From: an uncultured Acidimicrobiales bacterium | GTDB lineage: Bacteria > Actinomycetota > Acidimicrobiia > Acidimicrobiales > UBA8190 | Direction of reading: 5' to 3' | Length of the DNA stretch: 64,000 bases | Assembly (NCBI GenBank): GCA_963794615.1 | Contig: CAWCEP010000010.1 | Location: 43,221-107,220 of the forward strand | Shown here: positions 1-61,370 of the stretch, one piece after another | How the letters are laid out: each line of letters starts with the position of its first letter | Numbering within the stretch: position 1 is the first letter of the stretch | Notes under the pieces: model-generated | Databases searched by the model: none | Told to the model about the DNA's origin: nothing | The model's input: the letters and a program-made list of their open reading frames with translations, nothing else | Position numbers and translations under genes: made by a program

Positions 1-23
1 TTCTGCCGAGAGTTCAGAACAGG

Positions 24-596
24 GTGATGGGGGTCGAACGACTACACGAGGCGCGTACCCGCGTTTGTGAAGGACTGGAAGGCGCGGTGGTGGAAATCGG
101 GTTCGGTACCGGCCTAAATGCGTTCTATTACACGCCCAAGATCACGAAGCTCGTCGCCATCGAGCCGTCGAAGGTGTGTATGAAGATCGCAGAACCGCGT
201 ATCGCCAAGTCACCCATCCCAGTCGAGTATGGCGGCCTGACGGGCGAGCATCTCGACCTCCCGAGCGGGGAGTTCGACGCGGCGCTGTCGACGTGGACAC
301 TGTGCACGATCCCGAACATGAACGCCGCACTGGCAGAGGTCAGGCGCGTCCTGAAGCCGGGTGGCGTGTTCCATTTCGTCGAGCATGGTCACGCGCCTGA
401 CCCCTCGGTGGCCCGTTGGCAGGCCAGGATCGAACCACCCTGGAAGCACATAGCGGGCGGATGCCACATCACCCGGCGCATCGCCGAGGGCATCGGGCGT
501 GCCGGTTTCGATATCCAGAAGCTCGATACCTACTACTACAAGGGCGAGCCAAAGCCGATGGGTTACACCTACGAAGGCCGTGCGGTCAGCAGGTGA
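24..596 (+). CDS. class I SAM-dependent methyltransferase (Methyltransf_11-like); possibly 5'-partial
   Basis: The 190-aa ORF has SAM motif I 'VVEIGFGTGLN', plus 'KLVAIEPS' and 'LKPGGVFHFVEHGH'. The frame is open from nt 3, so the true start may lie upstream of the window. Confidence 0.8.
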   Translation: MMGVERLHEARTRVCEGLEGAVVEIGFGTGLNAFYYTPKITKLVAIEPSKVCMKIAEPRIAKSPIPVEYGGLTGEHLDLPSGEFDAALSTWTLCTIPNMNAALAEVRRVLKPGGVFHFVEHGHAPDPSVARWQARIEPPWKHIAGGCHITRRIAEGIGRAGFDIQKLDTYYYKGEPKPMGYTYEGRAVSR

Positions 597-662
597 TGGT
601 CACTGGCGGCTGAGGGTGGGGAAGCCACCGGGGCAGACGTCCCATGAGCGGTTCTCCCTCCC

Positions 663-891
663 TCACCAGTAGGTCGCGACGGGACGGATCTCGATCGTGC
701 CTCCGTGACGGGCGGCTGGGATCCGCGCTGCCAGGTCGATGGCAGCGTCGAGGTCGTCGGCCTCAAGGATGAGATAGCCGCCAACGCGTTCGCTCAGGTA
801 CGGACGCCCGGGTCACGGTCTTGCCATCTCGCACCTGCACGGTGGTGGCGTCCTGAGGCAGTCCAAGCGGCAGGCCGGGTCCCCTGAGCAT
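663..891 (-). pseudogene. YciI/DGPF-family protein remnant (frameshifted, N-terminal half missing)
   Basis: Minus-strand translation gives '...DATTVQVRDGKTV'. After a frame switch near nt 795-816 it continues 'PYLSERVGGYLILEADDLDAAIDLAARIPAARHGGTIEIRPVATYW*'. This matches the C-terminal half of YciI-like proteins. Confidence 0.55.
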
Positions 892-1021
892 TTTGGCCCT
901 TTGTGACAGCAACGCGAACAGACCCGTAGGTCTTGGCATCCCTCGCTGGGTTTGTGCTCAACTTTCGACGAACACCCGAACGGAGGTTCGCCTTCCTCCC
1001 CTGATGGGTAGGTGCCACGAC

Positions 1022-2056
1022 ATGAATATCTCTCGGATCGCCAAGCTAAGCGGAGTGATGGGCGTGGTGGCAACAGGGCTCCCGCTCACCCTCGGCGTAC
1101 TGGCCGCGTCCCCGTCGCCGGCATCAGCGTCTGGGGCGATATCCGCCGTCGACGTCACCGGGCCTCTACCCGCCGCGACTCTCGGTCGGAGGTACGAGGT
1201 CCGGCTCATCGGTGGAGGAGGCTCGTCGTACAGACTCGGCCAGCGCGGGGCGTTGCCAAAGGGCATCAGGCTGCATTCTGGCGGACTGCTGTCGGGGAAG
1301 CCAAAGAAGAAGGACCTTCCGGGGGAATATGCGTTCACGGTGCAAGACGGGTCGAACATCTTCTCTGAGACCCTGGCGTTGGTCACCGCGACTGGTGGGA
1401 ACTGCACTCATCCTGTTTGGTCGAGCAGTCAGTCCAAATGGACATATGACGTCAAAGTCAACGACGGTGAGTATTGGTCGGTAAATAACGATACCTGGAG
1501 TGGTTCACATGGACCGCAGACTATCCACGTCTGCAACCAGGCGAGCTGGTACGCCGTATCGGACCAGCCGAACAACGGGGGCGCGGTCGAGACGTACCCG
1601 GACACCGAGTACGACATCCGTGCCCGGAACAACCCGTCTACGAAACCTATTTCGCAGTACAACTCGATCAGTTCGACGTTCTCCGAGGATTACCCGTCCG
1701 CTGGCTCCTGGGACGCCGCCTATGACTTGTGGCTCAACAACTGGGGCATCGAGACAATGATCTGGAACCAGTGGTCGGGCACACAGGATTATTTGCCGGA
1801 CCAGGCGAAGATCTCACTTAGTTTGGGCGGCGTGCCCTACAAGTTCTACGACAACGGCGGCGAGCTGATGTTCTTCAGACAGAGTCAGGTGACTTCGGGT
1901 TCCGTGGACATCCTGGCCGCCTACGACTGGCTCGTGCAGAAGGGCTACATCAGTGCGAGCGACGCGCCAACCCAGCTGGAGTACGGCGTCGAGATCTGCT
2001 CGACCAACGGGAACGAGACGTTCCCCATGACCGGCCTTACATTCAAAACGAGCTAA
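1022..2056 (+). CDS. secreted GH12-like (concanavalin-fold) glycoside hydrolase with N-terminal Ig-like segment
   Basis: Signal peptide 'MNISRIAKLSGVMGVVATGLPLTLGVLAASPSPASA'. GH12-like motifs 'AAYDLWLNNWGIETMIWNQW' and 'LEYGVEICSTNG'. I took the start at the ATG at 1022 inside the longer track ORF 893..2056. Confidence 0.6.
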   Translation: MNISRIAKLSGVMGVVATGLPLTLGVLAASPSPASASGAISAVDVTGPLPAATLGRRYEVRLIGGGGSSYRLGQRGALPKGIRLHSGGLLSGKPKKKDLPGEYAFTVQDGSNIFSETLALVTATGGNCTHPVWSSSQSKWTYDVKVNDGEYWSVNNDTWSGSHGPQTIHVCNQASWYAVSDQPNNGGAVETYPDTEYDIRARNNPSTKPISQYNSISSTFSEDYPSAGSWDAAYDLWLNNWGIETMIWNQWSGTQDYLPDQAKISLSLGGVPYKFYDNGGELMFFRQSQVTSGSVDILAAYDWLVQKGYISASDAPTQLEYGVEICSTNGNETFPMTGLTFKTS

Positions 2057-2104
2057 ACGGCGATTGGCCCCGAGGGTCCCGTTTAGGTTGCATAGAGTCG
2101 GTCT

Positions 2105-2227
2105 GAACAGAAACCGCCGGCCCGAAGGTTGGCGGTTTCTTCATTTCGAGGGGTGGCGGAGAGTCAAAGACTCGTCGCCACATCCAACAATGGGCTCTCA
2201 TGAAGACTGCGGACTTCTTTGGGATGG
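2105..2227. repeat. direct repeat copy A (candidate distal att site of the ssrA-associated island)
   Basis: About 122 bp align with 37115-37236, with about a dozen mismatches and one gap. The shared core is 'gaacagaaaccgccggccc...ggcggtttcttcatttcgaggggtggcggagagtcaaagactc[g/a]tcgccac[a/c]tccaacaatggg'. Confidence 0.75.
2111..2145 (+). terminator. intrinsic terminator downstream of the GH12-like gene
   Basis: Hairpin 'aaaccgcc...ggcggttt' followed by the T-rich tract 'tttcttcattt'. It lies 55 nt after the stop at 2056. Confidence 0.65.
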
Positions 2228-2500
2228 TCACGAAACTTCCTGGCCATCCGGCCCAGGCGAGATGGATGTCTTTGGGACGCACCAAGTGCATTTTGGTCAC
2301 AAACAGCTCGAACACCTCTTGCGTCTCCCACACGTCGACCAAGCAGAGCCCATCTTCAGTCTTGGGCCGCCCAGCAAAACAGGACGCCAGTCGGGGTCGG
2401 GCCGCCGGTCAGGTAACCGAGATCCTCCTCGACAATGTCTTGGTAGTGTCTGAACGTGACGCCCCGGAAATCCGCTGGTACGGCGAGCGCCTCCGGAACT
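2228..2500 (-). pseudogene. frameshifted third paralogue of the ~100-aa ABM/Dabb-like family (see 2668..2967 and 17546..17845)
   Basis: The minus strand reads 'VPADFRGVTFRHYQDIVEEDLGYLTGGPTPTGVLFCWAAQ'. After a frame switch near nt 2355-2365 it continues 'EDGLCLVDVWETQEVFELF'. This is colinear with 'IDVPGVTIQQYD...GGLFHWVAKTDTGIRIVNVWASRDLFDEF'. No start codon is recognisable. Confidence 0.45.
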
Positions 2501-2667
2501 TCCGAACCCCACCGGTCGACTCGGAGCCAGCATCGCGCCAACGACCTGGTCCGTCGATTGGGACCAGGGTGGGAATCCCAGAAGCGAACCTGCCAAGAGG
2601 CTGCACTCCCGGGCGGAGCAGTTTCGGACGGTCCGGTCGTGCCCTGGCCATCCCGGCGGGAGTTCTG

Positions 2668-2967
2668 ATGGCAGTTGCAGTTCAGATCGACGTACCGGGT
2701 GTCACGATCCAACAGTACGACCTTGCCATCGAAGTCGCCGGGTTCTTGCGCGGGGGACCACTACCAGTCGGCGGACTGTTTCATTGGGTTGCCAAGACGG
2801 ACACGGGCATCCGCATCGTCAACGTGTGGGCCTCACGCGATCTATTCGATGAGTTCGCCGAGACGCAAGCCGCCATCATCGAGGAGATCGGGGTGGATCC
2901 GACATCCCTCGCGGTCCAGTTCTTGGATGTGCACAACTACCTTCGTGGTACTAACTGGCGGGACTAA
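2668..2967 (+). CDS. small (~99 aa) ABM/Dabb-like hypothetical protein, paralogue family member 1
   Basis: ATG at 2668 preceded by 'gggag'. 'MAVAVQIDVPGVTIQQYDLAIEVAGFLRGGPLPVGGLFHWVAKTDTGIRIVNVWASRDLFDEF' is colinear with the protein at 17546..17845. The long N-terminal extension of track ORF 2200..2967 is Arg/Pro/Ser-rich and implausible. Confidence 0.65.
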   Translation: MAVAVQIDVPGVTIQQYDLAIEVAGFLRGGPLPVGGLFHWVAKTDTGIRIVNVWASRDLFDEFAETQAAIIEEIGVDPTSLAVQFLDVHNYLRGTNWRD

Positions 2968-2971
2968 TAGG

Positions 2972-3697
2972 ATGCTTTCCGACACGCCGCGAACGCCTCA
3001 ACCTTCCCTGACTGAGGAGCACAGCCAGCTCACTCAGTCGCGGATCCGACAGGCAGCCATGCAGGTAGTCGCCCGCCGTGGGTTCGAAGCAACGGTCCTC
3101 GAGATTGCTGAGTTATCGGGCGTGAGCCCCCGGACCATCTTCCGCCGTTACAAGAGCCAGAGCGCCCTGATCGCGGCCACGCTACAGGACATGTTCGAGG
3201 CGGGGAACCGGCCGATCGACGGCCTGCCGCAACCCAGTGACGACCTCGACGGTTGGTTAGGGGTGTTGACGTTGACGCTGCACACGAGAGGCGTCCAGAT
3301 CTTCGGCGTGGTGATCTGGGACTTGCTGCAAGGGCCCGGGGCCGCTCTCCCTGCGGCGATTTCGGAGATCATCGAGGCCCAGGTCGTGTTCCGACGCCAC
3401 GCGGTCCAGCACTTCACCGAGGTCGCCTGGCAGGCCGCTGGAGGGAAAGGTCAAGCTCCCGACTCGCTGGCGTCGGAATTCACCGTGCAACTGTCGCCGT
3501 TTACGACCAGGACGCTAATGCTCGAGCGGGATCAAACCCCTGCCCAGATCGCTGCCCTGAGCGCCGATGTCCTGAAGACTCTCCTCGAGCGCGCCGTGGA
3601 CGAACGGAACCAGGCGCATCCCGATATCTCTGGCGCCGCGAGTGCAGGCGAGACCGAGAACCGAGCGGCCGCCGACAGAGGTCGAAAAGCCCATTGA
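2972..3697 (+). CDS. TetR/AcrR-family transcriptional regulator
   Basis: The N-terminal HTH 'IRQAAMQVVARRGFEATVLEIAELSGVSPRTIFRRYKSQSAL' is typical of TetR_N. The start is the ATG at 2972, in frame within track ORF 2675..3697. Confidence 0.85.
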   Translation: MLSDTPRTPQPSLTEEHSQLTQSRIRQAAMQVVARRGFEATVLEIAELSGVSPRTIFRRYKSQSALIAATLQDMFEAGNRPIDGLPQPSDDLDGWLGVLTLTLHTRGVQIFGVVIWDLLQGPGAALPAAISEIIEAQVVFRRHAVQHFTEVAWQAAGGKGQAPDSLASEFTVQLSPFTTRTLMLERDQTPAQIAALSADVLKTLLERAVDERNQAHPDISGAASAGETENRAAADRGRKAH

Positions 3698-3704
3698 GCG
3701 GGCG

Positions 3705-4409
3705 ATGACGGCTCCACTTGAACAACCGATATGCCCCGACGTAGTGTCGCTGCCGACATTGGCGCCCCGATGGGGGTGGCAAAGGCCAAGGATTGGTGCA
3801 GTAGCGACTCGGGACCCTGTGCGCCATGCCGATTCGGACCGGCGTAGTCTTGGCTCGGTGGACCATGAAACTTGTGGCGCGTGTGGCTTTGACGGAGCCA
3901 GCTATGACGACATTGCCTTGCTTGGGGCGCTCCGCAGTTTGGGATCGACTTGGCGTGCGCTCATCGACACCTGCGGTGGGGCACTTCGGGTTCGTCCCGA
4001 GCCCGAGGTCTGGAGTGCGCTCGAGTACGTAGCGCACAGCCGAGATGTCACCGCCTTACACGCCTTCGGGGTCGAACAAGCTCTGACCGCTGAGGAGCCG
4101 AGATTTCCAGCTGTAGAGGGTGAGGCGTTGATCCAGTCTGGGGCGATGTCGTATCGCGACGCCGACCCGGATCAGGTCGTCGATACGTTGGAGGGCGAAG
4201 CGACCCGTCTGGCTCTGCTCGCCGACGACGCGGGGACTCAGACTTGGTCGCGTGGACTGACGATTGGTGGGTCACGTATGGACGTGCGCCGACTCCTGGA
4301 ACACGCGCTCCATGATTCCCTTCATCATCTCATCGACGTGGAGGAAGGTCTGAGCGTGATTCACGCCCGACGACAGGCGGACGCGAAATCAGCCGACACC
4401 CCATCCTGA
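3705..4409 (+). CDS. DinB-fold protein (DinB_2 / mycothiol-maleylpyruvate-isomerase N-terminal-like)
   Basis: 'WSALEYVAHSRDVTALH' and the C-terminal 'LLEHALHDSLHHLIDV' are His-rich four-helix-bundle motifs. The start is uncertain: ATG 3705 or GTG 3858. Confidence 0.6.
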   Translation: MTAPLEQPICPDVVSLPTLAPRWGWQRPRIGAVATRDPVRHADSDRRSLGSVDHETCGACGFDGASYDDIALLGALRSLGSTWRALIDTCGGALRVRPEPEVWSALEYVAHSRDVTALHAFGVEQALTAEEPRFPAVEGEALIQSGAMSYRDADPDQVVDTLEGEATRLALLADDAGTQTWSRGLTIGGSRMDVRRLLEHALHDSLHHLIDVEEGLSVIHARRQADAKSADTPS

Positions 4410-19382: not shown

Positions 19383-20411
19383 ATGGCTAGGGGTGTCGTC
19401 CAGGAGTGGGACGCGTTGGAACGTCGAGGCGTGATTATCTCGGACGAGACGCCGGACGGCTGTTTGGTCGGGTTCTTGCAGCTGGCGCTTTCGGGTTACC
19501 GTGAACTCACCGCCGGTCAAGGCGTCGAGTTTGAATACGAAACATCGGAAGAAGACGGGTACCGATACCGGGCGACGCAAGTGACAGTCGAGGGAGACGA
19601 CCCAATATCCATTCCCTTCGGAAACCCAACGTCCCGTCTCGCCATCAAGGCGTACAGCGTTACGAGTTGCCCGCAGTGCGGCGGACGAATTGTCAAGGAG
19701 GGTGGCCCAGGAGGATTGCTGGCGTGCAGCAAGTGTGGATACGAGAAAGAGCTACCACCGTTCCCGCCGCAGAGGGCAGGATCCGCCTCGCCCATGCGAG
19801 TCCTCTCCTTTCCCGCCGATGAGGTCGTAGGCACACTGGAATGGGTCGGCTCTTATAGCCAAGAGCGCGGCCCGGTCTTGGCCACTGGCAACGTCGACGC
19901 TCCAGTCGATAAACGGATTTCCCTCGATGTGCATCGGATCGATTCTGTGGAGCCGTCAGGGGATGGGTGGTCGATGAGAGGCGGGACTACTCCACTGGAT
20001 CTTCAGTTCTTGACCGGATTGCCCTCCGACAGCGTCGAGTCCCTCAAGATCGGTCCTGGCATTGTCCCTGCGTCCTTCAGATTCGTCGCGCATCTGGCGC
20101 CGGGTCTACGACGCTTGTACTTAGGTCACGCCGGGCTGACTGACCAAGCGCTCGACCATGTGGCCAAGCTCACAGGACTAACGCATCTCCAGACGTTCGA
20201 CAACTCCTTCACAGACGCTGGAGCCCAGCAACTTGCGACCCTTCAGAACCTCGAGAGCCTGTACTTAGAGGAAGAGACGCTATCGACAGCTTCGCTGGCA
20301 TTCGTCCGAGAGCTTCCGCACCTTTCTCGGCTCGACCTTCAGGACATGCCACTCACCGAAGAGGAGTTGGCAGACCTTCGTGCCGCCCTACCGGGAGTTC
20401 AGGTCGGATAG
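19383..20411 (+). CDS. cold-shock-domain-like / zinc-ribbon / leucine-rich-repeat fusion protein
   Basis: The N-terminus 'ARGVVQEWDALERRGVIISDETPDGCLVGF...GYRELTAGQGVEFEYE...YRATQVT' is CSD-like. 'CPQCGGRIV...CSKCGYEK' is a C4 ribbon. The C-terminus has RNI-type LRRs ('LRRLYLGHAGLTDQALDHVAKLTGLTHLQTFDNSFTDAGAQQLATLQNLESLYLEEETLS'). Confidence 0.7.
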   Translation: MARGVVQEWDALERRGVIISDETPDGCLVGFLQLALSGYRELTAGQGVEFEYETSEEDGYRYRATQVTVEGDDPISIPFGNPTSRLAIKAYSVTSCPQCGGRIVKEGGPGGLLACSKCGYEKELPPFPPQRAGSASPMRVLSFPADEVVGTLEWVGSYSQERGPVLATGNVDAPVDKRISLDVHRIDSVEPSGDGWSMRGGTTPLDLQFLTGLPSDSVESLKIGPGIVPASFRFVAHLAPGLRRLYLGHAGLTDQALDHVAKLTGLTHLQTFDNSFTDAGAQQLATLQNLESLYLEEETLSTASLAFVRELPHLSRLDLQDMPLTEEELADLRAALPGVQVG

Positions 20412-23443: not shown

Positions 23444-24655
23444 ATGACGGGGAGGGCCGTGGCCAAACGGCGTGGTGTTCTGGGATTCCTCACAGCAATC
23501 CTGATTTGGCTGGGCTCTTCGTGCTCCTCGCCCCACGGGACAGCTACCAGCACGTCCGTTCCAAGTGGATCATCGACTACTAGGCCGCGCACGACGACTC
23601 CTCGGAATCCTTCCCCGCCCCTCGCAGACGGGACGTCGGTGCCGGGGTACCGAGTCGGCCCGATTTCGTTCGTCTCCCCGGCACATGGGTACGGACTGGT
23701 CGAGTTCGACACGACGGGACAGTCATCAGAACAGCAGCTTGTTGTGACCGAGGACGGTGGAGCCACCTGGCAGGTGGCCACATCGACAGTGGTTCCGTCA
23801 TGGGCGTCCACATTGGACTTCATCGACGCCACCGAGGGTTACGCCTGGGGTTCTGAGGGGCTCGACGTCACCCACGATGGGGGACAGCACTGGGCGTTCT
23901 CCCTCAACCTCGACACTGGTTACGAGGCCGTGTCACCCATAGGCATGAGCATCTGGGCAATCTCGTCATCAGACGTGCTGCAGACCTCCATCGACGGCGG
24001 GAACACCTGGCAAAAGGCCGTCCAAACACCCGTGCCCAGTCCGGCACTCCTCAGTCGGGTGAGCGCCAACGTGGCGTACGTCCTGGGCTGTGGGCAGAAC
24101 ACCGTGAGTGGCTCCCAGCCCGGTGCCCTGGCGCGTACCGAAGACGGCGGCAAGACGTGGCAGACCCTCTCGCTTCCGCAGGGCTGCACGGGACAAGCCG
24201 ACTGGTCCGATCTCGTGGCCCTCTCGACCAATGATCTTTGGCTTGTCCAGTTCGGGCAACCGGCAACCGATATGTCCTCCAAGTGGGTCTACCGGTCAGA
24301 TGACGGCGGGGTGCACTGGACCCTCAAGGCGTCGGAGAGCCTTGGCAACCCCAGCCAACAAACGGGGACGGTCTCCCCGATTGGCGATTTCGGTCCACTG
24401 AGCGTCCTCGCTTCAGAACCCAACCGAGCATGGCTTGCGGAGGATTGGGGTGGACTCCTCGTCACGACGGACGGCGGGTCGAACTGGCACTCGGCTTACA
24501 GCGACCCCAACGTTGACGCCGCTGGCCCGCCGTACGTCTCGTTCTCAGATGCTTCTCATGGTTGGGCAGGGAGCGGACACGGCCTCTGGCGGACAACCGA
24601 CGGTGATACATGGACAGAGATCGTGCATTCACCCGGGTCAGGTTCCAACCCATAG
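23444..24655 (+). CDS. secreted/lipoprotein beta-propeller with BNR (Asp-box) repeats (Ycf48/sialidase-like)
   Basis: Seven Asp-box motifs: 'TEDGGATWQ', 'THDGGQHW', 'SIDGGNTWQ', 'TEDGGKTWQ', 'SDDGGVHW', 'TTDGGSNW' and 'TTDGDTW'. The N-terminal signal has 'LGSSCSS'. Confidence 0.8.
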   Translation: MTGRAVAKRRGVLGFLTAILIWLGSSCSSPHGTATSTSVPSGSSTTRPRTTTPRNPSPPLADGTSVPGYRVGPISFVSPAHGYGLVEFDTTGQSSEQQLVVTEDGGATWQVATSTVVPSWASTLDFIDATEGYAWGSEGLDVTHDGGQHWAFSLNLDTGYEAVSPIGMSIWAISSSDVLQTSIDGGNTWQKAVQTPVPSPALLSRVSANVAYVLGCGQNTVSGSQPGALARTEDGGKTWQTLSLPQGCTGQADWSDLVALSTNDLWLVQFGQPATDMSSKWVYRSDDGGVHWTLKASESLGNPSQQTGTVSPIGDFGPLSVLASEPNRAWLAEDWGGLLVTTDGGSNWHSAYSDPNVDAAGPPYVSFSDASHGWAGSGHGLWRTTDGDTWTEIVHSPGSGSNP

Positions 24656-24989: not shown

Positions 24990-26205
24990 ACCTCCAACAA
25001 CGTTCTGACCTGGTCCTTGTTGGCCAAAACGCTCTTGGGGTGTTCTCGAAATCCCGCGACCAGGGTGGAGACGGAACCGGCGGGGGAGTGACCACAGCTT
25101 AAGGAGCCGAGCCTCCACGCCCCGGTCACGAGGGGTGGATGGACGGCAACTTCGAGTGGCCGACCGAGCCAGCTGTTGAGCTTATTCCATGGGGAAACGC
25201 GCCAATGCGACGGCGGTGAGCGATGCTGGCTATCAACGATTCGCTGCGCGACTACGTCCAGGAACGACTCTCGGGCGTCCAGCACACCCCTGATGGTCGA
25301 CTCGTCGGTCCTCCCGGTCCGAAGTGGAACGGGAAGGGCAAACCCCATCGAGCTGATCGCCGATGGGTGAAAGGCTGGAGTCCCGAACAGATCTCCAAGC
25401 GCCTCAGGGTTGATTTCCCCGATGATGAGTCCATGCGGATCAGCCACGAGGCGATCTACCAGGCTCTCTACGTCCAAGGCCGAGGAGCACTCAAGCGGGA
25501 GCTGGTTGCCTGCCTCCGGACCGGCCGGGCCTTGCGAGTGCCCCGTTCCAGGTCACAGCAGAAAGCCTGGGGCCACGTCACGCCTGAGGTGATGATCAGT
25601 GAGCGACCCGCCGAGGCCGACGATCGTGCCGTCCCCGGCCACTGGGAAGGCGACCTCATCATCGGGTTGGAACGCTCGGCGATCGGCACGTTGGTGGAGC
25701 GGACCACGAGGTTCACTGTGCTGATCCATCTGCCCCGAGAAGACGGCTATCGACACAAGCACACCGTCAAGAACGGTCCCGCGCTCGCCGGTTATGGAGC
25801 GATCACGATGAAAGACGTGCTCGCCGCCAAGATGACCGCCCTCCCAGAGCAGCTTCGCCGCTCCCTAACTTGGGACAGGGGCAAGGAGCTCTCCCAACAT
25901 GCAGCATTCAAAGTCGAGACTGGCATACCGGTCTACTTCGCCGACCCTCGCAGCCCCTGGCAACGCGGCAGCAACGAGAACACCAACGGACTCCTGCGCC
26001 AATATTTCCCCAAGGGAACTGACGTCTCGCGCTGGAACGCCGAAGAGATCGATTCGGTTGCAGCCATGCTCAACAGCCGACCCCGCAAGACCCTTGGTTG
26101 GAAGACACCCGCTGAAGCCTTCGATGAGCATGTACATTTGCTCCAGAAAGCCGGTGTTGCCACGATCGATTGAACCTAGTCAATACCGGTCGAGCGTTGG
26201 GGGTC
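24990..26205 (+). mobile_element. IS30-family insertion sequence remnant (boundaries approximate)
   Basis: Contains the IS30 transposase catalytic region. A weak imperfect inverted-repeat candidate lies around 24,994-25,020 versus 26,180-26,205. The ends were not rigorously determined. Confidence 0.5.
25223..26173 (+). pseudogene. IS30-family transposase lacking an intact N-terminal HTH region
   Basis: IS30 hallmarks: 'WSPEQISKRL', 'MRISHEAIYQALYVQGRGALKRELVACLRTGRALRVPR', 'PGHWEGDLI', 'LTWDRGKE' and 'PWQRGSNENTNGLLRQYFPKGTD'. An in-frame TGA at 25217-25219 interrupts the conserved segment ('PWGNAPMRRR*AMLAINDSLRDYV'). Farther upstream, no continuous frame is found. Confidence 0.7.
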
Positions 26206-26544: not shown

Positions 26545-28188
26545 TTACGTGATGCCGACGATGTCACTGACGTGGATGCCGAGTCCCGGTACCGAACCGT
26601 GGAAGGTGGCATTGCCGAAGGCGTAGACGCCGCCGTCCGATCCCACCAGCAGGTAACCACCGCCATCAGATGTCGGGGCGATGCCGACGATGTCACTGAC
26701 GTGGATGCCGAGTCCCGGTACCGAACCGTGGAAGGTGGCATTGCCGAAGGCGTAGACGCCGCCGTCCGATCCCACCAGCAGGTAACCACCGCCATCAGAT
26801 GTCGGGGCGATGCCGACGATGTCACTGACGTGGATGCCGAGTCCCGGTACCGAACCGTGGAAGGTGGCATTGCCGAAGGCGTAGACGCCGCCGTCCGATC
26901 CCACCAGCAGGTAACCACCGCCATCAGATGTCGGGGCGATGCCGACGATGTCACTGACGTGGATGCCGAGTCCCGGTACCGAACCGTGGAAGGTGGCATT
27001 GCCGAAGGCGTAGACGCCGCCGTCCGATCCCACCAGCAGGTAACCACCGCCATCAGATGTCGGGGCGATGCCGACGATGTCACTGACGTGGATGCCGAGT
27101 CCCGGTACCGAACCGTGGAAGGTGGCATTGCCGAAGGCGTAGACGCCGCCGTCCGATCCCACCAGCAGGTAACCACCGCCATCAGATGTCGGGGCGATGC
27201 CGACGATGTCACTGACGTGGATGCCGAGTCCCGGTACCGAACCGTGGAAGGTGGCATTGCCGAAGGCGTAGACGCCGCCGTCCGATCCCACCAGCAGGTA
27301 ACCACCCGTGGTGGCTGGGATCACAGGTGTCGGAGCAACCGGACAGGCTGCATAGGTGGCCGTGGCCGTTCCATTCCCAGTTTGCGTGGTGACAGCGTTC
27401 GTCGAGTTGGTGACGGATGGGTCCACGTAGTTCGAACCGCCGCCGCCGCCGCCGCCGCTGGCATCTTCGCTGGCCGCGCCGCCGCCACCGCCGAAGTACC
27501 CGCCGCCGCCGCCGCCACCGCCGTCGAAGTCGGAACCACCAGCACCACCGTTCTCACCAGACCCCGCCGAGCCACTCCCACCCATGTTGGGGACCTCGGC
27601 ACCGCCGGCGCCTGGCGCGCTCGTGGTGCCCGGCGCGCCACCCAGGCCTTGCGTGGCACCCCCGGTAGGCCCGTTGGTTCCCGCGGCACCAGCGTTGCCG
27701 CCGTCCCCACCTTCGCCAACCAGACCGTACGCGCCGCCGCCGCCTCCGCCACCAGCGACCAGTACGGGCGCGGCGGAACCACCAATCGTGACGATCGAGG
27801 CGCCGCCTCCGCCACCGCCGTCCCCGGCGTCGGTCCCACCCGCCCCGCCGGTATTCGCCCCGGCAGTGTCGGTGGCTCCCGCACCGCCGATGTACACCGA
27901 GTAGGACTGACCGGGTGTCACCGCAACCGTGCCAGTCACCACGCCGCCCAATCCGCCCAGACCGTAGGGCGCCATTGATATTCCGCCGTTGCCGCCCTCG
28001 CCGCCAACCACGTCAAAGGTGATGGCACACACTCCGCTCGGCACCGTCTCAGCGTTCGCTCCGAGCGAGAAGGTCGGAGCTGTGGGCACCGAGGCCGACG
28101 CCGTGGACTCAGACACTGCGAGCGTCGCCCCCGAGAGGGTGATCCCCGTTACGGCAAGCACCACGTTCTTTCGCAGCCAACCCAGCAT
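26545..28188 (-). CDS. secreted protein: ALK/LTK-type glycine-rich domain followed by six identical 43-aa blade-like repeats
   Basis: The start is taken at ATG 28188 ('MLGWLRKNVVLAVTGITLSGATLAVS', a signal peptide). The longer track ORF to 28554 overlaps the IS110 fragment. The Gly-rich domain reads 'VPSGVCAITFDVVGGEGGNGG...VAVTPGQSYSVYIGGAGA...GGGGGGASIVTIGG...VLVAGGGGGGG'. The C-terminus is 6 x 'GGYLLVGSDGGVYAFGNATFHGSVPGLGIHVSDIVGIAPTSDG'. Confidence 0.8.
   Translation of the reverse strand: MLGWLRKNVVLAVTGITLSGATLAVSESTASASVPTAPTFSLGANAETVPSGVCAITFDVVGGEGGNGGISMAPYGLGGLGGVVTGTVAVTPGQSYSVYIGGAGATDTAGANTGGAGGTDAGDGGGGGGASIVTIGGSAAPVLVAGGGGGGGAYGLVGEGGDGGNAGAAGTNGPTGGATQGLGGAPGTTSAPGAGGAEVPNMGGSGSAGSGENGGAGGSDFDGGGGGGGGYFGGGGGAASEDASGGGGGGGSNYVDPSVTNSTNAVTTQTGNGTATATYAACPVAPTPVIPATTGGYLLVGSDGGVYAFGNATFHGSVPGLGIHVSDIVGIAPTSDGGGYLLVGSDGGVYAFGNATFHGSVPGLGIHVSDIVGIAPTSDGGGYLLVGSDGGVYAFGNATFHGSVPGLGIHVSDIVGIAPTSDGGGYLLVGSDGGVYAFGNATFHGSVPGLGIHVSDIVGIAPTSDGGGYLLVGSDGGVYAFGNATFHGSVPGLGIHVSDIVGIAPTSDGGGYLLVGSDGGVYAFGNATFHGSVPGLGIHVSDIVGIT
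26551..27306. repeat. perfect 129-bp tandem repeat, 5.86 units (coding, in frame)
   Basis: Unit 'gatgccgacgatgtcactgacgtggatgccgag...catcagatgtcggggc'. Units start at 26551, 26680, 26809, 26938, 27067 and 27196. I saw no mismatch between copies by eye. Confidence 0.95.
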
Positions 28189-28350
28189 CGCCAGCACCTT
28201 TCGCCGATCTCCGTGGCACCCGCCATCACGAACGCCAAGAGGATAGGCAGGATCTGGACGACAACAGCGGACCACCACGCTCCCACACGGACAAGGCGCC
28301 CCGGAAGTGCGATCGGGCTGTTGGTCCGGAAGCCCTGTAGTCACACATAA

Positions 28351-28860
28351 TTGCTGCGAGAACGGGCGAGGCTCGTGCGCGTCCGCACCACGGCCAAGAA
28401 CCGGATTCGGGCGCAGATCGCCGATGAGGGCGTGCCGGCTCCGAGCCACGGCCTGTGGACCAAAGAGGGTGCCACCTGGCTCGACTCCTTGGACCTCTCG
28501 CCCATGCACCGCTGGGTGGTGACCGACTGCCAGGCGCTCATTGATGTCCTCCAATCACGGATCTCGCTGCTCGAGGCCGAGATCCGCCGCCAGGCGAAGC
28601 CCGACAAGCGCATCGACGCTCTCACCGCTATCCACGGCATCGGGCTTCTAAGCGCAATGACGCTTGTTTCTGAGATCGGGGACATCTCCCGCTTCGCCAC
28701 CGCCCGGAAACTCTGTGCGTGGGCCGGGATCATCCCCTCCATGCGCAACTCCGACCGGACTGTTCACCACGGCCACATCACCAGGGCCGGTCCGTCCGCC
28801 GTGCGCCACGTGCTCGCGGAGGCCGCGGAAGTAGCCATCCGCAAGGAGCCCTACTCTTGA
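28351..28860 (+). mobile_element. IS110-family transposase internal fragment (truncated at both ends)
   Basis: 'IDALTAIHGIGLLSAMTLVSEIGDISRFATARKLCAWAGIIPSMRNSDRTVHHGHITRAGPSAVRHVL' matches the Transposase_20 (HhH) region. The N-terminal DEDD domain is absent (a TAA lies directly upstream). The ORF stops about 50 aa short of a normal C-terminus. Confidence 0.75.
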
Positions 28861-33371: not shown

Positions 33372-34298
33372 TCAGCTGGCTTCTTGAAAACGCTGCCAAC
33401 GAACCTCAAGGAGCTCCGGATTCGGGTGAGCAGCCCTACGATTGGGGAGCTGGATCCTCTGGCCGTCGATCTCCTGCAGTGTGTGCCGAAGCGTGGGCCC
33501 ATCGAGTTCTTTCATGACATCAGGGCGGACCCCCACCTCGTACTTGGGGTTAATGCCGAAGATGTCTGCGTCATAGGCGGCGTGATGGATCTTGCACATG
33601 GCGATGCCATTGGTGACGATGGGCTGACCGCCTTCTGCGTCGGCCAGGACGTGGGCTGCGTCGAGAAGACGCGTGTGACGAAGACGGCAGATAGAGCATT
33701 GGTTCTCGTAGGCGAGAAGCACGCGTTGTCGAAACAGGGGCTGGTGCAGGCGGGCCTTCACGACCCGTTCGGCGTAGGAGCGGACGAGTTCGGGGTCCTC
33801 GTCTAACAGGTCGTGACGGACTCGGAGGGCCTCCTCGGAAAGAGAGACCACAAATTGCTGCGCGTACGACTCCTCGTCAGCCAACCAAACCGGATAGATG
33901 GGGTAGTAGACACCTGACGCGACCCCTTGGAACCAGATGAGCGGCAGAGCAAGCGTCATGGCCAGGCGAAGGGCGCGATTGTCGGGATGCGTCGGATCGA
34001 CGCCCCGCCACTTATAGCGGATGAACCCATCGGGTCCGACCTCGTCGTCGTAGGGGCGTTGGCTCGGATCCGACGCGAATACGGTGCGGAAGCTGAGCGC
34101 GGCTTGAAGCCGGCGGGGCTTCCAGATCCCTTGCTGGGTGGCCATGAGACGAAGAGGCGACCCCTCGAAACTGAAGGGCGTGAGGTCGTCCTGGCGCACC
34201 AAGGCTTGTCCCCTCGTCGCCAGCCCGTCGAGATAGGCGAAGGCGGCTGCCCGTAGGCGCCCATCAGTCTCTGCATCGAAGGCCGGCATCGACAGCAA
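33372..34298 (-). CDS. HNH endonuclease with SRA/PUA-like N-terminal domain (candidate modification-dependent, type IV-like restriction enzyme)
   Basis: The C-terminus 'CSICRLRHTRLLDAAHVLADAEGGQPIVTNGIAMCKIHHAAYD' is the HNH_2 pattern. The N-terminus 'QQGIWKPRRL...PYDDEVGPDGFIRYKWRGVDPTHPDNRALRLAM...PLIWFQGVASGVYYPIYPVWL' is reminiscent of the SRA/YDG architecture. Confidence 0.65.
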   Translation of the reverse strand: MLSMPAFDAETDGRLRAAAFAYLDGLATRGQALVRQDDLTPFSFEGSPLRLMATQQGIWKPRRLQAALSFRTVFASDPSQRPYDDEVGPDGFIRYKWRGVDPTHPDNRALRLAMTLALPLIWFQGVASGVYYPIYPVWLADEESYAQQFVVSLSEEALRVRHDLLDEDPELVRSYAERVVKARLHQPLFRQRVLLAYENQCSICRLRHTRLLDAAHVLADAEGGQPIVTNGIAMCKIHHAAYDADIFGINPKYEVGVRPDVMKELDGPTLRHTLQEIDGQRIQLPNRRAAHPNPELLEVRWQRFQEAS

Positions 34299-59132: not shown

Positions 59133-61370
59133 ATGTTCCGCCCCGGCCGCCGCCCCCGTCGCCGTCGCCTGGTCCCAGGGGTCGTGCTCGTGGGTCTCGG
59201 ACTCGCCGTCACGGTCGGCGCCTCGCCCCCGACGGTGGACGGCGCCGCGCAGCCCCGGGTGTCGCCCACCTTCACCTTGACGTGGTCGACCGGCCCTCTC
59301 GCCGACCAGGGGAGCCCGATCGCGGAGTCCTCCCCGGGGGTGGCGACCCTCGACGCCGGTGGCCCGGCCGTCGTCGTCGGCGACCGCAACGGATCGGTGT
59401 ACGCGTACCACGTCGCCGACGGATCACCGGTGGCGGGATGGCCCGCCTCCGACGGTGGTATCCCCATCGACTCGTCTCCGTCGGTGTTGGCCACGACGGG
59501 TGGACTGGATTCGGTCTTCGTGGGCACCGGCAATGCGGCTGACCCCGGCCAGGGTGGGTACGACGCCTTCGCGGCGTCGGGGGCGCCGCTGTGGTTCACC
59601 CCGGTGACCGATCCTCCCAGCGATGCCGAGCCCGCCGCCGGTGTCCAGGCGTCGATGACGGTGGCCGACCTCCAGGGCACGGCGAGCGTCGTGGCCGGTT
59701 CCCTCGACCAGGAGGAGTACGCGCTCGACGCGTCCACGGGGGCGACGCTGCGGGGCTGGCCCTTGTTCACCTCCGACAGTGTGTTCTCGACCGCCGCGGT
59801 GGGCGACCTCTACGGCACGGCCACCGCGGACATCGTCGAGGGCGGGGACCAGAGCAGCGGCTTCGCCGTCGGCCGCCACTACCAGCAGGGCGGCCACCTT
59901 CGCATCGTCAACCAGAACGGCGGCGTCATCTGCGACGCGCCGACCACCCAGACCGTGGACTCTTCACCCGCGGTCGGGCCCTTCCTGTCGGGTGGGGCGA
60001 CGGGCATCGCGGTGGGAACGGGAGCGTTCTTCGCCGGTGCCACCGACACCGACGCCGTGAAGTCCTTCGACACCGACTGCTACCAGGTCTGGTCCCGGAC
60101 CCTCGACGGCGCCACCACCAGCAGCCCGGCCCTCGCCGATGTGACCGGGAGCGGACGGCTCGACGTGGTCGAGGGCACCGACGCCGGCACGGGCGGCTCG
60201 GTGTGGGTCCTCGACGGGGCGACGGGGGCCACGGTGTGGCAGGCGCCGGTGGTGGGGCGCGTCATCGGGTCGGTGGTGGTCGCCGATCTGGCCGGGACGA
60301 GCAACCAGGACGTCCTCGTTCCCACCACGGCCGGGGTCGAGATCCTGGACGGGGCGTCGGGAACCGAGTTGACCGTGCTCAGTCCCGACCTCGGATTCCA
60401 GAACTCGCCGCTCGTCACCGACGATCCCAACGGGGACGTCGGGATCACGGTGGCGGGATACGACGGCACCAACCGGGGAGAGATCCGGCACTACGAGATC
60501 CTCGGCTCCGACGGTGCGTCGGCCGTCGGCCCCACGTCGTGGCCGATGTTCCACCACGACCCGCAGCGCAGTGGCGTCACCGGTGCCCTCGCGCCGCCGC
60601 CGTCGTGCTCGGTGCCCTCGGGCGCCTATACGGGGTACACCCTGGCGTCGGCCGACGGCGGGGCCTTCGACTTCGCCAGCCCGTTCTGCGGGTCGGCCGG
60701 GGGGTTGCGGTTGCGGGCGCCCGTCGTGGGCATGGCCACGGCACCCGACAGCGGGGGCTACTGGCTGGTGGGGGCGGACGGGGGGGTCTTCGCCTATGGC
60801 GGCGCCCAGTACTACGGCTCGATGGGCGGCACGGCGCTCGCCCGACCGGTGGTCGCCATGGCGGCCACCCGCGACGGCCACGGCTACTGGCTCGTCGGGG
60901 CCGACGGGGGGGTGTTCGCCTTCGGAGACGCCGGCTACTTCGGCACGGTCTCGAACCTGCATCTGGCCGCGCCCGTGGTGGGCATGGCCGCGTCCCTCGA
61001 CGGCGAGGGCTACTGGCTCGTCGGGGCCGACGGGGGGGTGTTCGCCTTCGGCGACGCCCAATACTTCGGCTCGATGGCCAAGCACCGACTGAAAGCGCCC
61101 GTGGTGGGCCTCGCCGTCGACGTCGCCACGGCCGGCTACTGGCTCGTCGCCGCCGACGGCGGGGTCTTCGGCTTCGGTGGCACGTTCTACGGTTCGCTGG
61201 GCGCGCTCACCCTGGCGCGTCCCATCGTCGGCATGGCGGCGACCGACGACGGGTACGGCTACTGGTTGGTGGGCGCTGACGGTGGTGTCTTCGCCTTCGG
61301 CGATGCTCCCTTCGACGGCTCGATGGCCCAGACCCGTCTCGCCGCCCCGGTCCGCGCCATCGCGCCCTGA
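59133..61370 (+). CDS. secreted protein with an FG-GAP/PQQ-like N-terminal propeller and six C-terminal 41-42-aa 'GYWLVGADGGVF' repeats
   Basis: Arg-rich signal 'MFRPGRRPRRRRLVPGVVLVGLGLAV'. 'VGDRNGSVYAYHVADGSPVAGWP', 'VGDLYGTATADIVEGGD', 'LADVTGSGRLDVVEGTD' and 'VADLAGTSNQDVLV' are FG-GAP-like. C-terminal repeats are described below. Confidence 0.8.
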   Translation: MFRPGRRPRRRRLVPGVVLVGLGLAVTVGASPPTVDGAAQPRVSPTFTLTWSTGPLADQGSPIAESSPGVATLDAGGPAVVVGDRNGSVYAYHVADGSPVAGWPASDGGIPIDSSPSVLATTGGLDSVFVGTGNAADPGQGGYDAFAASGAPLWFTPVTDPPSDAEPAAGVQASMTVADLQGTASVVAGSLDQEEYALDASTGATLRGWPLFTSDSVFSTAAVGDLYGTATADIVEGGDQSSGFAVGRHYQQGGHLRIVNQNGGVICDAPTTQTVDSSPAVGPFLSGGATGIAVGTGAFFAGATDTDAVKSFDTDCYQVWSRTLDGATTSSPALADVTGSGRLDVVEGTDAGTGGSVWVLDGATGATVWQAPVVGRVIGSVVVADLAGTSNQDVLVPTTAGVEILDGASGTELTVLSPDLGFQNSPLVTDDPNGDVGITVAGYDGTNRGEIRHYEILGSDGASAVGPTSWPMFHHDPQRSGVTGALAPPPSCSVPSGAYTGYTLASADGGAFDFASPFCGSAGGLRLRAPVVGMATAPDSGGYWLVGADGGVFAYGGAQYYGSMGGTALARPVVAMAATRDGHGYWLVGADGGVFAFGDAGYFGTVSNLHLAAPVVGMAASLDGEGYWLVGADGGVFAFGDAQYFGSMAKHRLKAPVVGLAVDVATAGYWLVAADGGVFGFGGTFYGSLGALTLARPIVGMAATDDGYGYWLVGADGGVFAFGDAPFDGSMAQTRLAAPVRAIAP
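60633..61367 (+). repeat. six diverged protein-level repeats (41-42 aa) homologous to the 43-aa unit at 26551-27306
   Basis: The consensus 'GYWLVGADGGVFAFGDAxYFGSMxxxxLxAPVVGMAAxxDGx' appears six times. Compare the island unit 'GGYLLVGSDGGVYAFGNATFHGSVPGLGIHVSDIVGIAPTSDG'. Confidence 0.85.

Follow-up and report, generated by a model that had tools for sequence, protein, structure and literature searches.

We analysed a 64-kb window of DNA (64,000 nucleotides of contig CAWCEP010000010.1, from an uncultured Acidimicrobiales bacterium) and describe here a minus-strand gene within it, the product of which is predicted to be a secreted protein that joins a glycine-rich domain (GRD) to a β-propeller with identical blades. 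The features of the locus are collected in Table 1. Tandem Repeats Finder detects, in the part of the gene that encodes the propeller, a single array with a period of 129 and 5.9 copies that match at 100% and contain no indels. When the units are aligned, five copies agree at all 129 nt; the sixth agrees with them for 111 nt, after which the sequence reads ACG TAA. Such identity across 756 bp cannot have arisen by chance. The array is in frame within the open reading frame (ORF) that runs from the ATG at 28188 to the stop codon at 26545–26547 and encodes 547 residues; the C-terminal part of the protein is 6 × GGYLLVGSDGGVYAFGNATFHGSVPGLGIHVSDIVGIAPTSDG, with the final copy shortened to ...IVGIT*. 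The edge of the array is separated from the stop codon by 3 nt, i.e., one Thr codon. The initial annotation of this DNA, made from the letters alone, had described a 129-bp unit in 5.86 copies without mismatch, an in-frame reading of these copies as six 43-residue repeats, and a distance of 3 nt between array edge and stop codon, and all three descriptions hold.

Table 1. Coordinates of the GRD–propeller gene, its parts, and related or neighboring features in the window
Feature	Position	Strand	Basis
Gene for the 547-residue secreted GRD–propeller protein	26545..28188	-	ORF, translation; ortholog L001 also 547 residues, collinear
Predicted Sec signal peptide, residues 1–32	28093..28188	-	MLGWLRKN + hydrophobic core + ASA|S, read from sequence
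Glycine-rich domain of PF12810 ALK_LTK_GRD type, residues ~38–285	27334..28077	-	Pfam, PDB phmmer, AF2, Foldseek
Base-perfect tandem array, 129 bp × 5.86 copies	26551..27306	-	Tandem Repeats Finder; units written out
Predicted six-bladed β-propeller domain, residues 295–547, three-stranded blades	26548..27306	-	AF2, Foldseek, family norm
C-terminal strand IVGI, residues 543–546	26551..26562	-	Last strand (E255–258) of AF2 model
Upstream region conserved with the gene	28189..28351	-	blastn limits: to 28280 in L001, to 28351 in L002
IS30-family transposase remnant lacking its 5' part, located 3' of the gene	25220..26173	+	Pfam rve; cluster named IS30 family transposase; tblastn residues 150–466 of 466
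IS110-family transposase remnant, C-terminal Transposase_20 only	28351..28860	+	Pfam PF02371, E 1.1e-19; starts where L002 homology ends
tmRNA gene at GC step, tag AEPQLALAA	37245..37594	-	ARAGORN; GC profile
Paralogous family member (internal control), 745 residues, six diverged C-terminal repeats	59133..61370	+	tblastn, hmmsearch

The start codon is ambiguous by three codons, being either the ATG at 28188 or a GTG at 28197 that would add three residues. A longer ORF from a TTG at 28554 overlaps the remnant of an IS110-family insertion sequence (IS) and is not conserved in the ortholog described later. The N-terminus reads as a putative Sec signal peptide, and residues 1–23 have a predicted local distance difference test score (pLDDT) below 50 in the AlphaFold2 (AF2) model. 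The conserved region directly upstream contains the Shine–Dalgarno-like sequences GGAGA and GAAAGG.

A scan of species-representative genomes with the N-terminal half of the protein yielded one ortholog, here called L001, and a scan of metagenomes yielded one contig, L002, that ends inside the gene. The ortholog is found on a 1.63-Mb contig of an uncultured Acidimicrobiales metagenome-assembled genome (MAG), MFD03399.bin.2.90, and encodes a protein of 547 residues, of which the N-terminal half is 85.4% identical to that of the window gene at the nucleotide level. The boundaries of the array are the same in both genes, and the array in L001 (129 bp × 5.9, 99%) contains one copy-specific C-to-T change. 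Comparison of the two units shows that 14 of the 129 positions differ. These differences fall in 12 codons, ten of which change synonymously, and 41 of the 43 blade residues are common to both proteins. All 14 differences are fixed in every copy of each gene.

Without homogenisation since the split of the two genes, copies within a gene should be no more alike than the orthologs are, whereas the observed numbers of differences are zero (window gene) and one (L001). Because the unit differences are fixed within each gene, homogenisation of the arrays followed the split between the window gene and L001. The time that has passed since the last homogenisation in L001 can be approximated from one substitution in 755 bp, compared with approximately 0.054 substitutions per site per lineage, which places this event within roughly the last 2–3% of the time since the split.

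The fold of the repeat half was assessed with an AF2 model of residues 289–547, for which an alignment of 24 homologous sequences served as input. The model has a pLDDT of 92.7, a predicted template modeling score (pTM) of 0.89, and 18 strands, that is, three per repeat. A Foldseek search of the PDB with this model gave, among the matches listed, β-propellers only (probability 1.0). Of these, 2ymu, “a highly repetitive propeller,” ranks first, and the next places are taken by designed symmetric WRAP propellers (TMq 0.66–0.67 for 2ymu and the designed proteins). The modeling thus supports the six-bladed β-propeller that the initial annotation had put forward with AlphaFold as the proposed check, and it gives each blade three strands. 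A solenoid fold, considered as an alternative, was rejected since the AF2 model shows a propeller and so do the structures matched by Foldseek. In the order of strands in the model, two strands from the first repeat precede the first IVGIAP strand, and a lone IVGI strand stands at the end of the chain. Most likely, this final strand completes blade 1 as its inner strand and thereby closes the ring. Closure by the C-terminal strand would account for the presence of 5.86 copies, rather than six, and for the end of the array one codon before the stop.

At the level of sequence, neither Pfam nor NCBIfam has a family that covers the repeat, and NCBIfam has none for the N-terminal half either. Summed over the six copies, the Pfam family RCC1_2 reaches 29.5 bits (cutoff 22) and DUF5818 reaches 36.6 bits, with no single stretch passing in either case; RCC1_2 matches seven of 24 members of the blade family. 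A profile of the family, searched against the PDB, gave weak matches to the RCC1-like domains of HERC2 (E 0.005) and RPGR (E 0.005–0.08 overall), and the GxDGGVYAFG motif of the window protein aligns with RCC1_2. BLIP-II, another member of the RCC1/BLIP-II group, is an actinobacterial propeller that is secreted and has short blades of three strands. The window protein differs from these propellers in having six blades and not seven, no single repeat of it passes the Pfam domain threshold, and structures of BLIP-II and RCC1 are not among the 50 Foldseek matches listed. A distant link between the blade family and the RCC1/BLIP-II lineage, which ranks third in size among the groups of highly repetitive propellers (PMC9218822), is possible from these sequence matches. 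The propeller alone, compared with PDB sequences, gave only a chance-level match to the WD-repeat protein FAP52 (E 0.035). Membership of the WD40 group was rejected because Pfam matches at E up to 1 include no WD40 family; nor is WD40 among the 25 Pfam families most often matched, at E up to 0.1, over 24 members of the blade family. The likeness to WD40 propellers is one of fold only.

The blades belong to a very large family, for which Pfam offers no dedicated model and no structure has been solved. Its matches to the window protein, in more than 5,341 clusters (90% identity), are confined to the repeat half and show 45–71% identity. The few matching clusters with a source name that indicates a taxon all come from Acidimicrobiales MAGs, and the family occurs mostly in this order. 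Repeat statistics were collected for the 120 best matches, a sample that is biased toward consensus-like proteins, as the query consisted of six copies of one unit. Exactly six repeats with a period of 42–43 are present in 108 of these 120 homologs, and 77 have no tail after the last repeat, in keeping with closure of the ring by the final strand. In this sample, the mean identity between the blades of one protein reaches 0.89 at most, and its median is 0.54. Among database members, P0025 has the most symmetric blades; its layout (129 bp × 5.9) is that of the window array, and its nucleotide identity is 85%. An internal control is provided by the paralogue in the high-GC (guanine plus cytosine) core of the window, which has a signal-peptide-like N-terminus and repeats with a period of 42 and a mean blade identity of 48%. 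Close homologs of this paralogue carry the PQQ-like domains PF13360 and PF13570, and its named homologs are from Acidimicrobiales except for one Acidobacteriota entry, which makes an Acidimicrobiales host probable.

Since 108 of the 120 homologs have six repeats, the family is ancestrally six-bladed, and the event at the window locus is therefore the re-homogenisation of an existing propeller and not the creation of a propeller from a lone blade. The window gene stands at the extreme end of a continuum of blade identity and is not a newly made propeller. This modifies the initial annotation, which had inferred either recent amplification from a single blade or strong concerted evolution: recent homogenisation is borne out by the uniform arrays and by the 14 fixed differences from L001, but construction from one blade is not, given the six repeats in most homologs. 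The comparison of repeat number among relatives that it had proposed gives six in the window gene and six in L001, in line with the family.

Some residues in the blades of the window protein are uncommon in the family, and these occur in all six blades. In the FGNA motif, Asn (family frequency 6%) takes the place of the majority Asp (80%); in GYL, Leu (8%) takes the place of Trp (78%); and in VY, Tyr (11%) takes the place of Phe (87%). The blades of L001 share all three minority residues.

Propellers of this family are combined with many other domains. Pfam-confirmed partners include YkuD together with PG_binding_1, SpoIID, CHAP, Beta-lactamase2, Peptidase_A4, and GH43, and further SQHop_cyclase_C, DUF4397, TIG, Flg_new, and Ice_binding. 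The partner domains are all extracellular, and several act on peptidoglycan. The blade module occurs as a set of six repeats, usually C-terminal, that is joined to many different extracellular domains. Two proteins with the propeller at the N-terminus were also seen (P0007 and P0096), one continuing with PG_binding_1 and YkuD and the other with a class A β-lactamase-like domain. The latter partner attracts attention because β-lactamases are inhibited by BLIP-II, whose propeller blades are likewise three-stranded.

The N-terminal half of the protein was examined in the same manner. With residues 1–293 as the query, PF12810 (ALK_LTK_GRD) scores 26.7 bits (E 6.6e-6; gathering cutoff 24.5), the match spanning residues 58–259, and with the full-length protein it scores 23.9 bits, which is just below the cutoff. 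Most of 77 GRD sequence homologs carry PF12810, and a phmmer search of the PDB with the N-terminal half returned ALK ectodomains only (E ~0.01). The sequence of the domain contains four runs of 6–8 consecutive glycines. An AF2 model based on 27 sequences (pLDDT 86.8, pTM 0.82) has eight strands, arranged as a β-sandwich, and a long region without regular secondary structure. The latter comprises residues 150–259, which have no DSSP structure and a block-mean pLDDT that is mostly above 85, with a dip to 63 at residues 171–180. In a Foldseek search of the PDB, the top 17 matches are TG/GRD structures of ALK and LTK, with a probability of 1.0, TM-scores of 0.35–0.44, and a root mean square deviation of ~11 Å. 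The next fold matches in the PDB are the tail tip of mycobacteriophage Bxb1 and a cyanophage fibre, and in a comparison with predicted viral structures (BFVD), phage virion proteins and glycine-rich proteins give TM-scores of up to 0.62. Matches in PHROGs were weak and uninformative. The ALK/LTK TG domain, the ligand-binding domain of these receptors, has a TNF-like sandwich plus a polyglycine lattice.

Taken together, the Pfam score, the PDB matches, and the model support the assignment of the N-terminal half to the ALK/LTK-type glycine-rich domains, as the initial annotation had supposed. The resemblance consists of the above-cutoff Pfam score, the glycine runs, the β-sandwich, and the top PDB fold matches. 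In contrast to the ALK/LTK domains, the nearest homologs of the window GRD are bacterial and at most 45–53% identical; an exhaustive phmmer search with the GRD gave 3,931 representatives with E-values of 0.001 or lower, and their identity does not exceed ~53%. The window protein also has no kinase, EGF-like, or MAM domain and no transmembrane segment, meaning that the domain is shared with these receptors whereas the receptor system, in which a tyrosine kinase binds the cytokine ALKAL, is not. Related GRDs were observed in giant bacterial proteins of 2,000–7,800 residues, where the domain occurs up to 8–9 times (P0232–P0251). They are also common in virion or fibre proteins of cyanophages and Caulobacter phages, and many of these proteins have been automatically named “receptor protein-tyrosine kinase.”

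The repeat was sought in the 77 word-indexed GRD homologs and found in none of them. Among the 150 best GRD representatives, a single one, the metagenomic protein P0380 (650 residues), also carries blade repeats. This protein resembles the window protein in having a signal peptide, a GRD, and blades of the same family in the same order, and in a similar opening motif of the GRD (GANSETVPAGVCALT against GANAETVPSGVCAIT). It differs in having an extra Ig-like He_PIG domain, five diverged blades, and a GRD that is only ~53% identical. The idea of a novel domain fusion was therefore rejected, as P0380 and L001 carry the same combination. Judged by the proteins found in these searches, the fusion appears to be rare and not unique, and, unless it arose twice, it is older than the homogenisation. 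The domain combination had been noted as unfamiliar at the outset; its rarity stands (one of the 150 best GRD representatives), its uniqueness does not.

Two IS remnants enclose the gene, together with 163 bp upstream of it, as a discrete block. Homology to L001 in blastn is limited to 26548–28280, and the flanks are not syntenic. The metagenomic contig L002 (JGI Ga0116215_1007602, 1–4330) contains the window allele from another metagenome, with 99.8% identity over 27859–28351 (493 bp). The match stops exactly at 28351, where the IS110 remnant starts, and upstream of the gene L002 carries tRNA-Gln, tRNA-Glu, and a Phage_integrase (tyrosine integrase) gene. L002 is a short-read contig and ends at codon 110 of the gene. 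The GC content of the window is 60–66% up to ~38 kb and 70–74% beyond, and a transfer-messenger RNA (tmRNA) gene lies at this step. The low-GC region from 1 to 37 kb probably represents a genomic island that integrated at ssrA, with the tmRNA gene as the integration site; a second copy of the tmRNA 3' end is not present elsewhere in the 64-kb window, and the far boundary of the island is either outside the window or lost. The gene is cargo of this mobile low-GC island. Its position between IS30 and IS110 remnants inside an island had been proposed earlier and is confirmed by the truncated transposases on both sides and by the GC step at the tmRNA gene.

The island contains several other repeat proteins that are potentially extracellular. 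A leucine-rich-repeat (LRR) protein with a weak LRR_8 match is encoded at 19383–20411 (+), and the product of 23444–24655 (+) is a propeller protein of the BNR/Asp-box type (Sortilin or YCF48-like). An ORF with an HNH_2 endonuclease domain is located at 33372–34298 (−), near the tmRNA end of the island.

Considering these results together, it seems likely that the product of the gene is secreted and combines two binding modules, a GRD and a six-bladed propeller, that the gene resides on a mobile island, that the blades were recently homogenised, and that the propeller binds or tethers. The propeller could bind a cell-envelope ligand or another extracellular ligand and so tether or target the GRD. 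The sole basis for this suggestion is that the partner domains in the family are extracellular and that several act on peptidoglycan.

Several observations speak against parts of this interpretation. The perfect identity and the count of six in the window are properties of an assembled sequence and not of reads. The 547-residue protein is absent from a collection of 15 billion proteins, where three start variants (ATG 28188, GTG 28197, and GTG 28275) and a similarity search gave no close match; three other proteins from the contig of the gene are present in that collection. The TM-scores to solved propellers are only ~0.66, and every match listed has seven or more blades. Closure of the ring and the role of the last strand are deduced from the strand pattern, the pTM, and the Foldseek matches, and not from coordinates. 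For the N-terminal half, the TM-scores to ALK are low. A scan at the gene for a sigma-70-type promoter and a terminator found neither, although the sigma-70 consensus says little for a high-GC actinobacterium. The binding or tethering role is read from the co-occurrence of domains, and the propellers of P0007 and P0096 are N-terminal. Finally, a single recent re-amplification in each lineage is indistinguishable from continuous gene conversion.

Regarding the mechanism, the identity of the blades is the outcome of a very recent homogenisation of the 129-bp array. The most likely route is an in-frame contraction followed by re-expansion, with the units undergoing either unequal recombination or replication slippage. 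The count would then be brought back to six by selection for a ring that can close, and the same process ran separately in the L001 lineage. A change in the founding unit shows in six blades at once, an example being the Asn that replaces the conserved Asp of FGDA.

A different view of the same array is that it is a contingency locus, in which the copy number changes frequently and in frame, giving proteins with four to eight blades or oligomerising fragments and hence variation of a surface protein, so that six would be only a snapshot. The length of the unit, a multiple of three, and the suitability of identical repeats for slippage or unequal recombination fit this view, as do the location on a mobile island with other repeat proteins (LRR and BNR), the five blades of the related GRD–propeller protein P0380, and the finding that fragments with few identical blades can form propellers as oligomers (PMC6805158). 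Against this, both orthologs have exactly six copies, and 90% of the sampled family has six, which indicates a constrained count. We consider a contingency locus unlikely.

The array could also be an artefact of assembly, the true locus having fewer, more, or variant units that were made identical by the consensus of the assembler. Identical 129-bp units over 756 bp are difficult for short-read assemblers, the short-read contig L002 stops inside the gene, and the large protein collection mentioned previously lacks the protein. However, 5.86 copies correspond to the family norm, and a collapsed or inflated array is unlikely to arrive at six by accident. Moreover, the independent ortholog L001 has the same copy number and near-perfect identity with a different unit sequence. 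The name of the L001 MAG and its 1.6-Mb contig fit the Microflora Danica MAG catalogue, which was produced from Nanopore reads (read N50 6.1 kb) with Flye and Medaka (PMC12313526), and this fits the view that L001 is a long-read MAG from that catalogue. An artefact is, in our judgment, very improbable. An old amplification that was kept identical by purifying selection alone, without homogenisation, is hardly credible and was ruled out by the pattern at synonymous sites, for although the blade protein is conserved (41 of 43 residues common with L001), selection on protein does not freeze synonymous sites, ten of the 12 differing codons are synonymous and yet uniform among the copies in each gene, and other blades of the family, including those of the window paralogue, are at ~48–54% identity.

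Recent homogenisation, the reading that we prefer, has clear precedents among highly repetitive propellers. Pereira and Lupas (2022) found full blade identity in half of the lineages that they sampled, and they described independent amplification in close orthologs (PMC9218822). Uniformity within a gene combined with fixed differences between orthologs is a pattern known from the WRAP propellers of Nostoc (PMC9218822). Highly repetitive propellers are defined by a pairwise identity of at least 60% between consecutive blades, and this identity is 100% in the window gene, for protein and DNA, over the 5.86 units. The propeller fold is predicted by AF2 and Foldseek, and positions that separate all blades of close homologs exist as the 14 of 129 that distinguish the window gene from L001.

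The closest parallel is WRAP of Nostoc punctiforme (Npun_R6612, 2ymu), a bacterial protein whose blades are encoded by identical nucleotide sequences and which ranks first among the structural matches; here, too, close orthologs each carry a uniform array and differ from one another at fixed positions. The two differ in architecture, as WRAP has a 14-bladed WD40-type domain, whereas the window protein has six three-stranded blades of 43 residues. They also differ in the extent of homogenisation: in WRAP, the nucleotides of the first strand differ from the amplified region (PMC9218822), whereas the window domain is homogenised throughout, including the first unit. Identical blades are thus a documented and fairly common phenomenon in bacterial propellers, and the locus is a clean new example of it and not a new system. 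The statement in the initial annotation that nucleotide-identical blades are rare does not stand, given that half of the lineages in the published sample show full identity (PMC9218822), and the current understanding of propeller evolution is unchanged.

A further idea, which we regard as doubtful, is that the array acts as a device for re-specification in one step: it would shrink to approximately one blade and re-expand to six, thereby placing the mutations of the founding blade on all faces of the propeller. Candidate changes of this kind would be Asn for the Asp of FGDA and Leu for the Trp of GYW. If this idea were true, a gene on a mobile island could switch its ligand specificity in jumps, and the spread of blade identity in the family from 48% to 100% would reflect repeated adaptive resets and not neutral turnover.

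The window gene and L001 provide a second independent pair of natural orthologs in which the blades are uniform within each gene and differ between the genes by fixed, mostly synonymous changes. This pattern allows the homogenisation of blades to be assigned to the time after a speciation or transfer event and to be dated relative to it. Six identical natural blades are also convenient for structure determination and for tests of the oligomerisation of fewer blades. More broadly, the locus points to a family of more than 5,000 clusters of six-bladed propellers in Acidimicrobiales, with three strands per blade, that are coupled to enzymes acting on peptidoglycan and to other extracellular enzymes.

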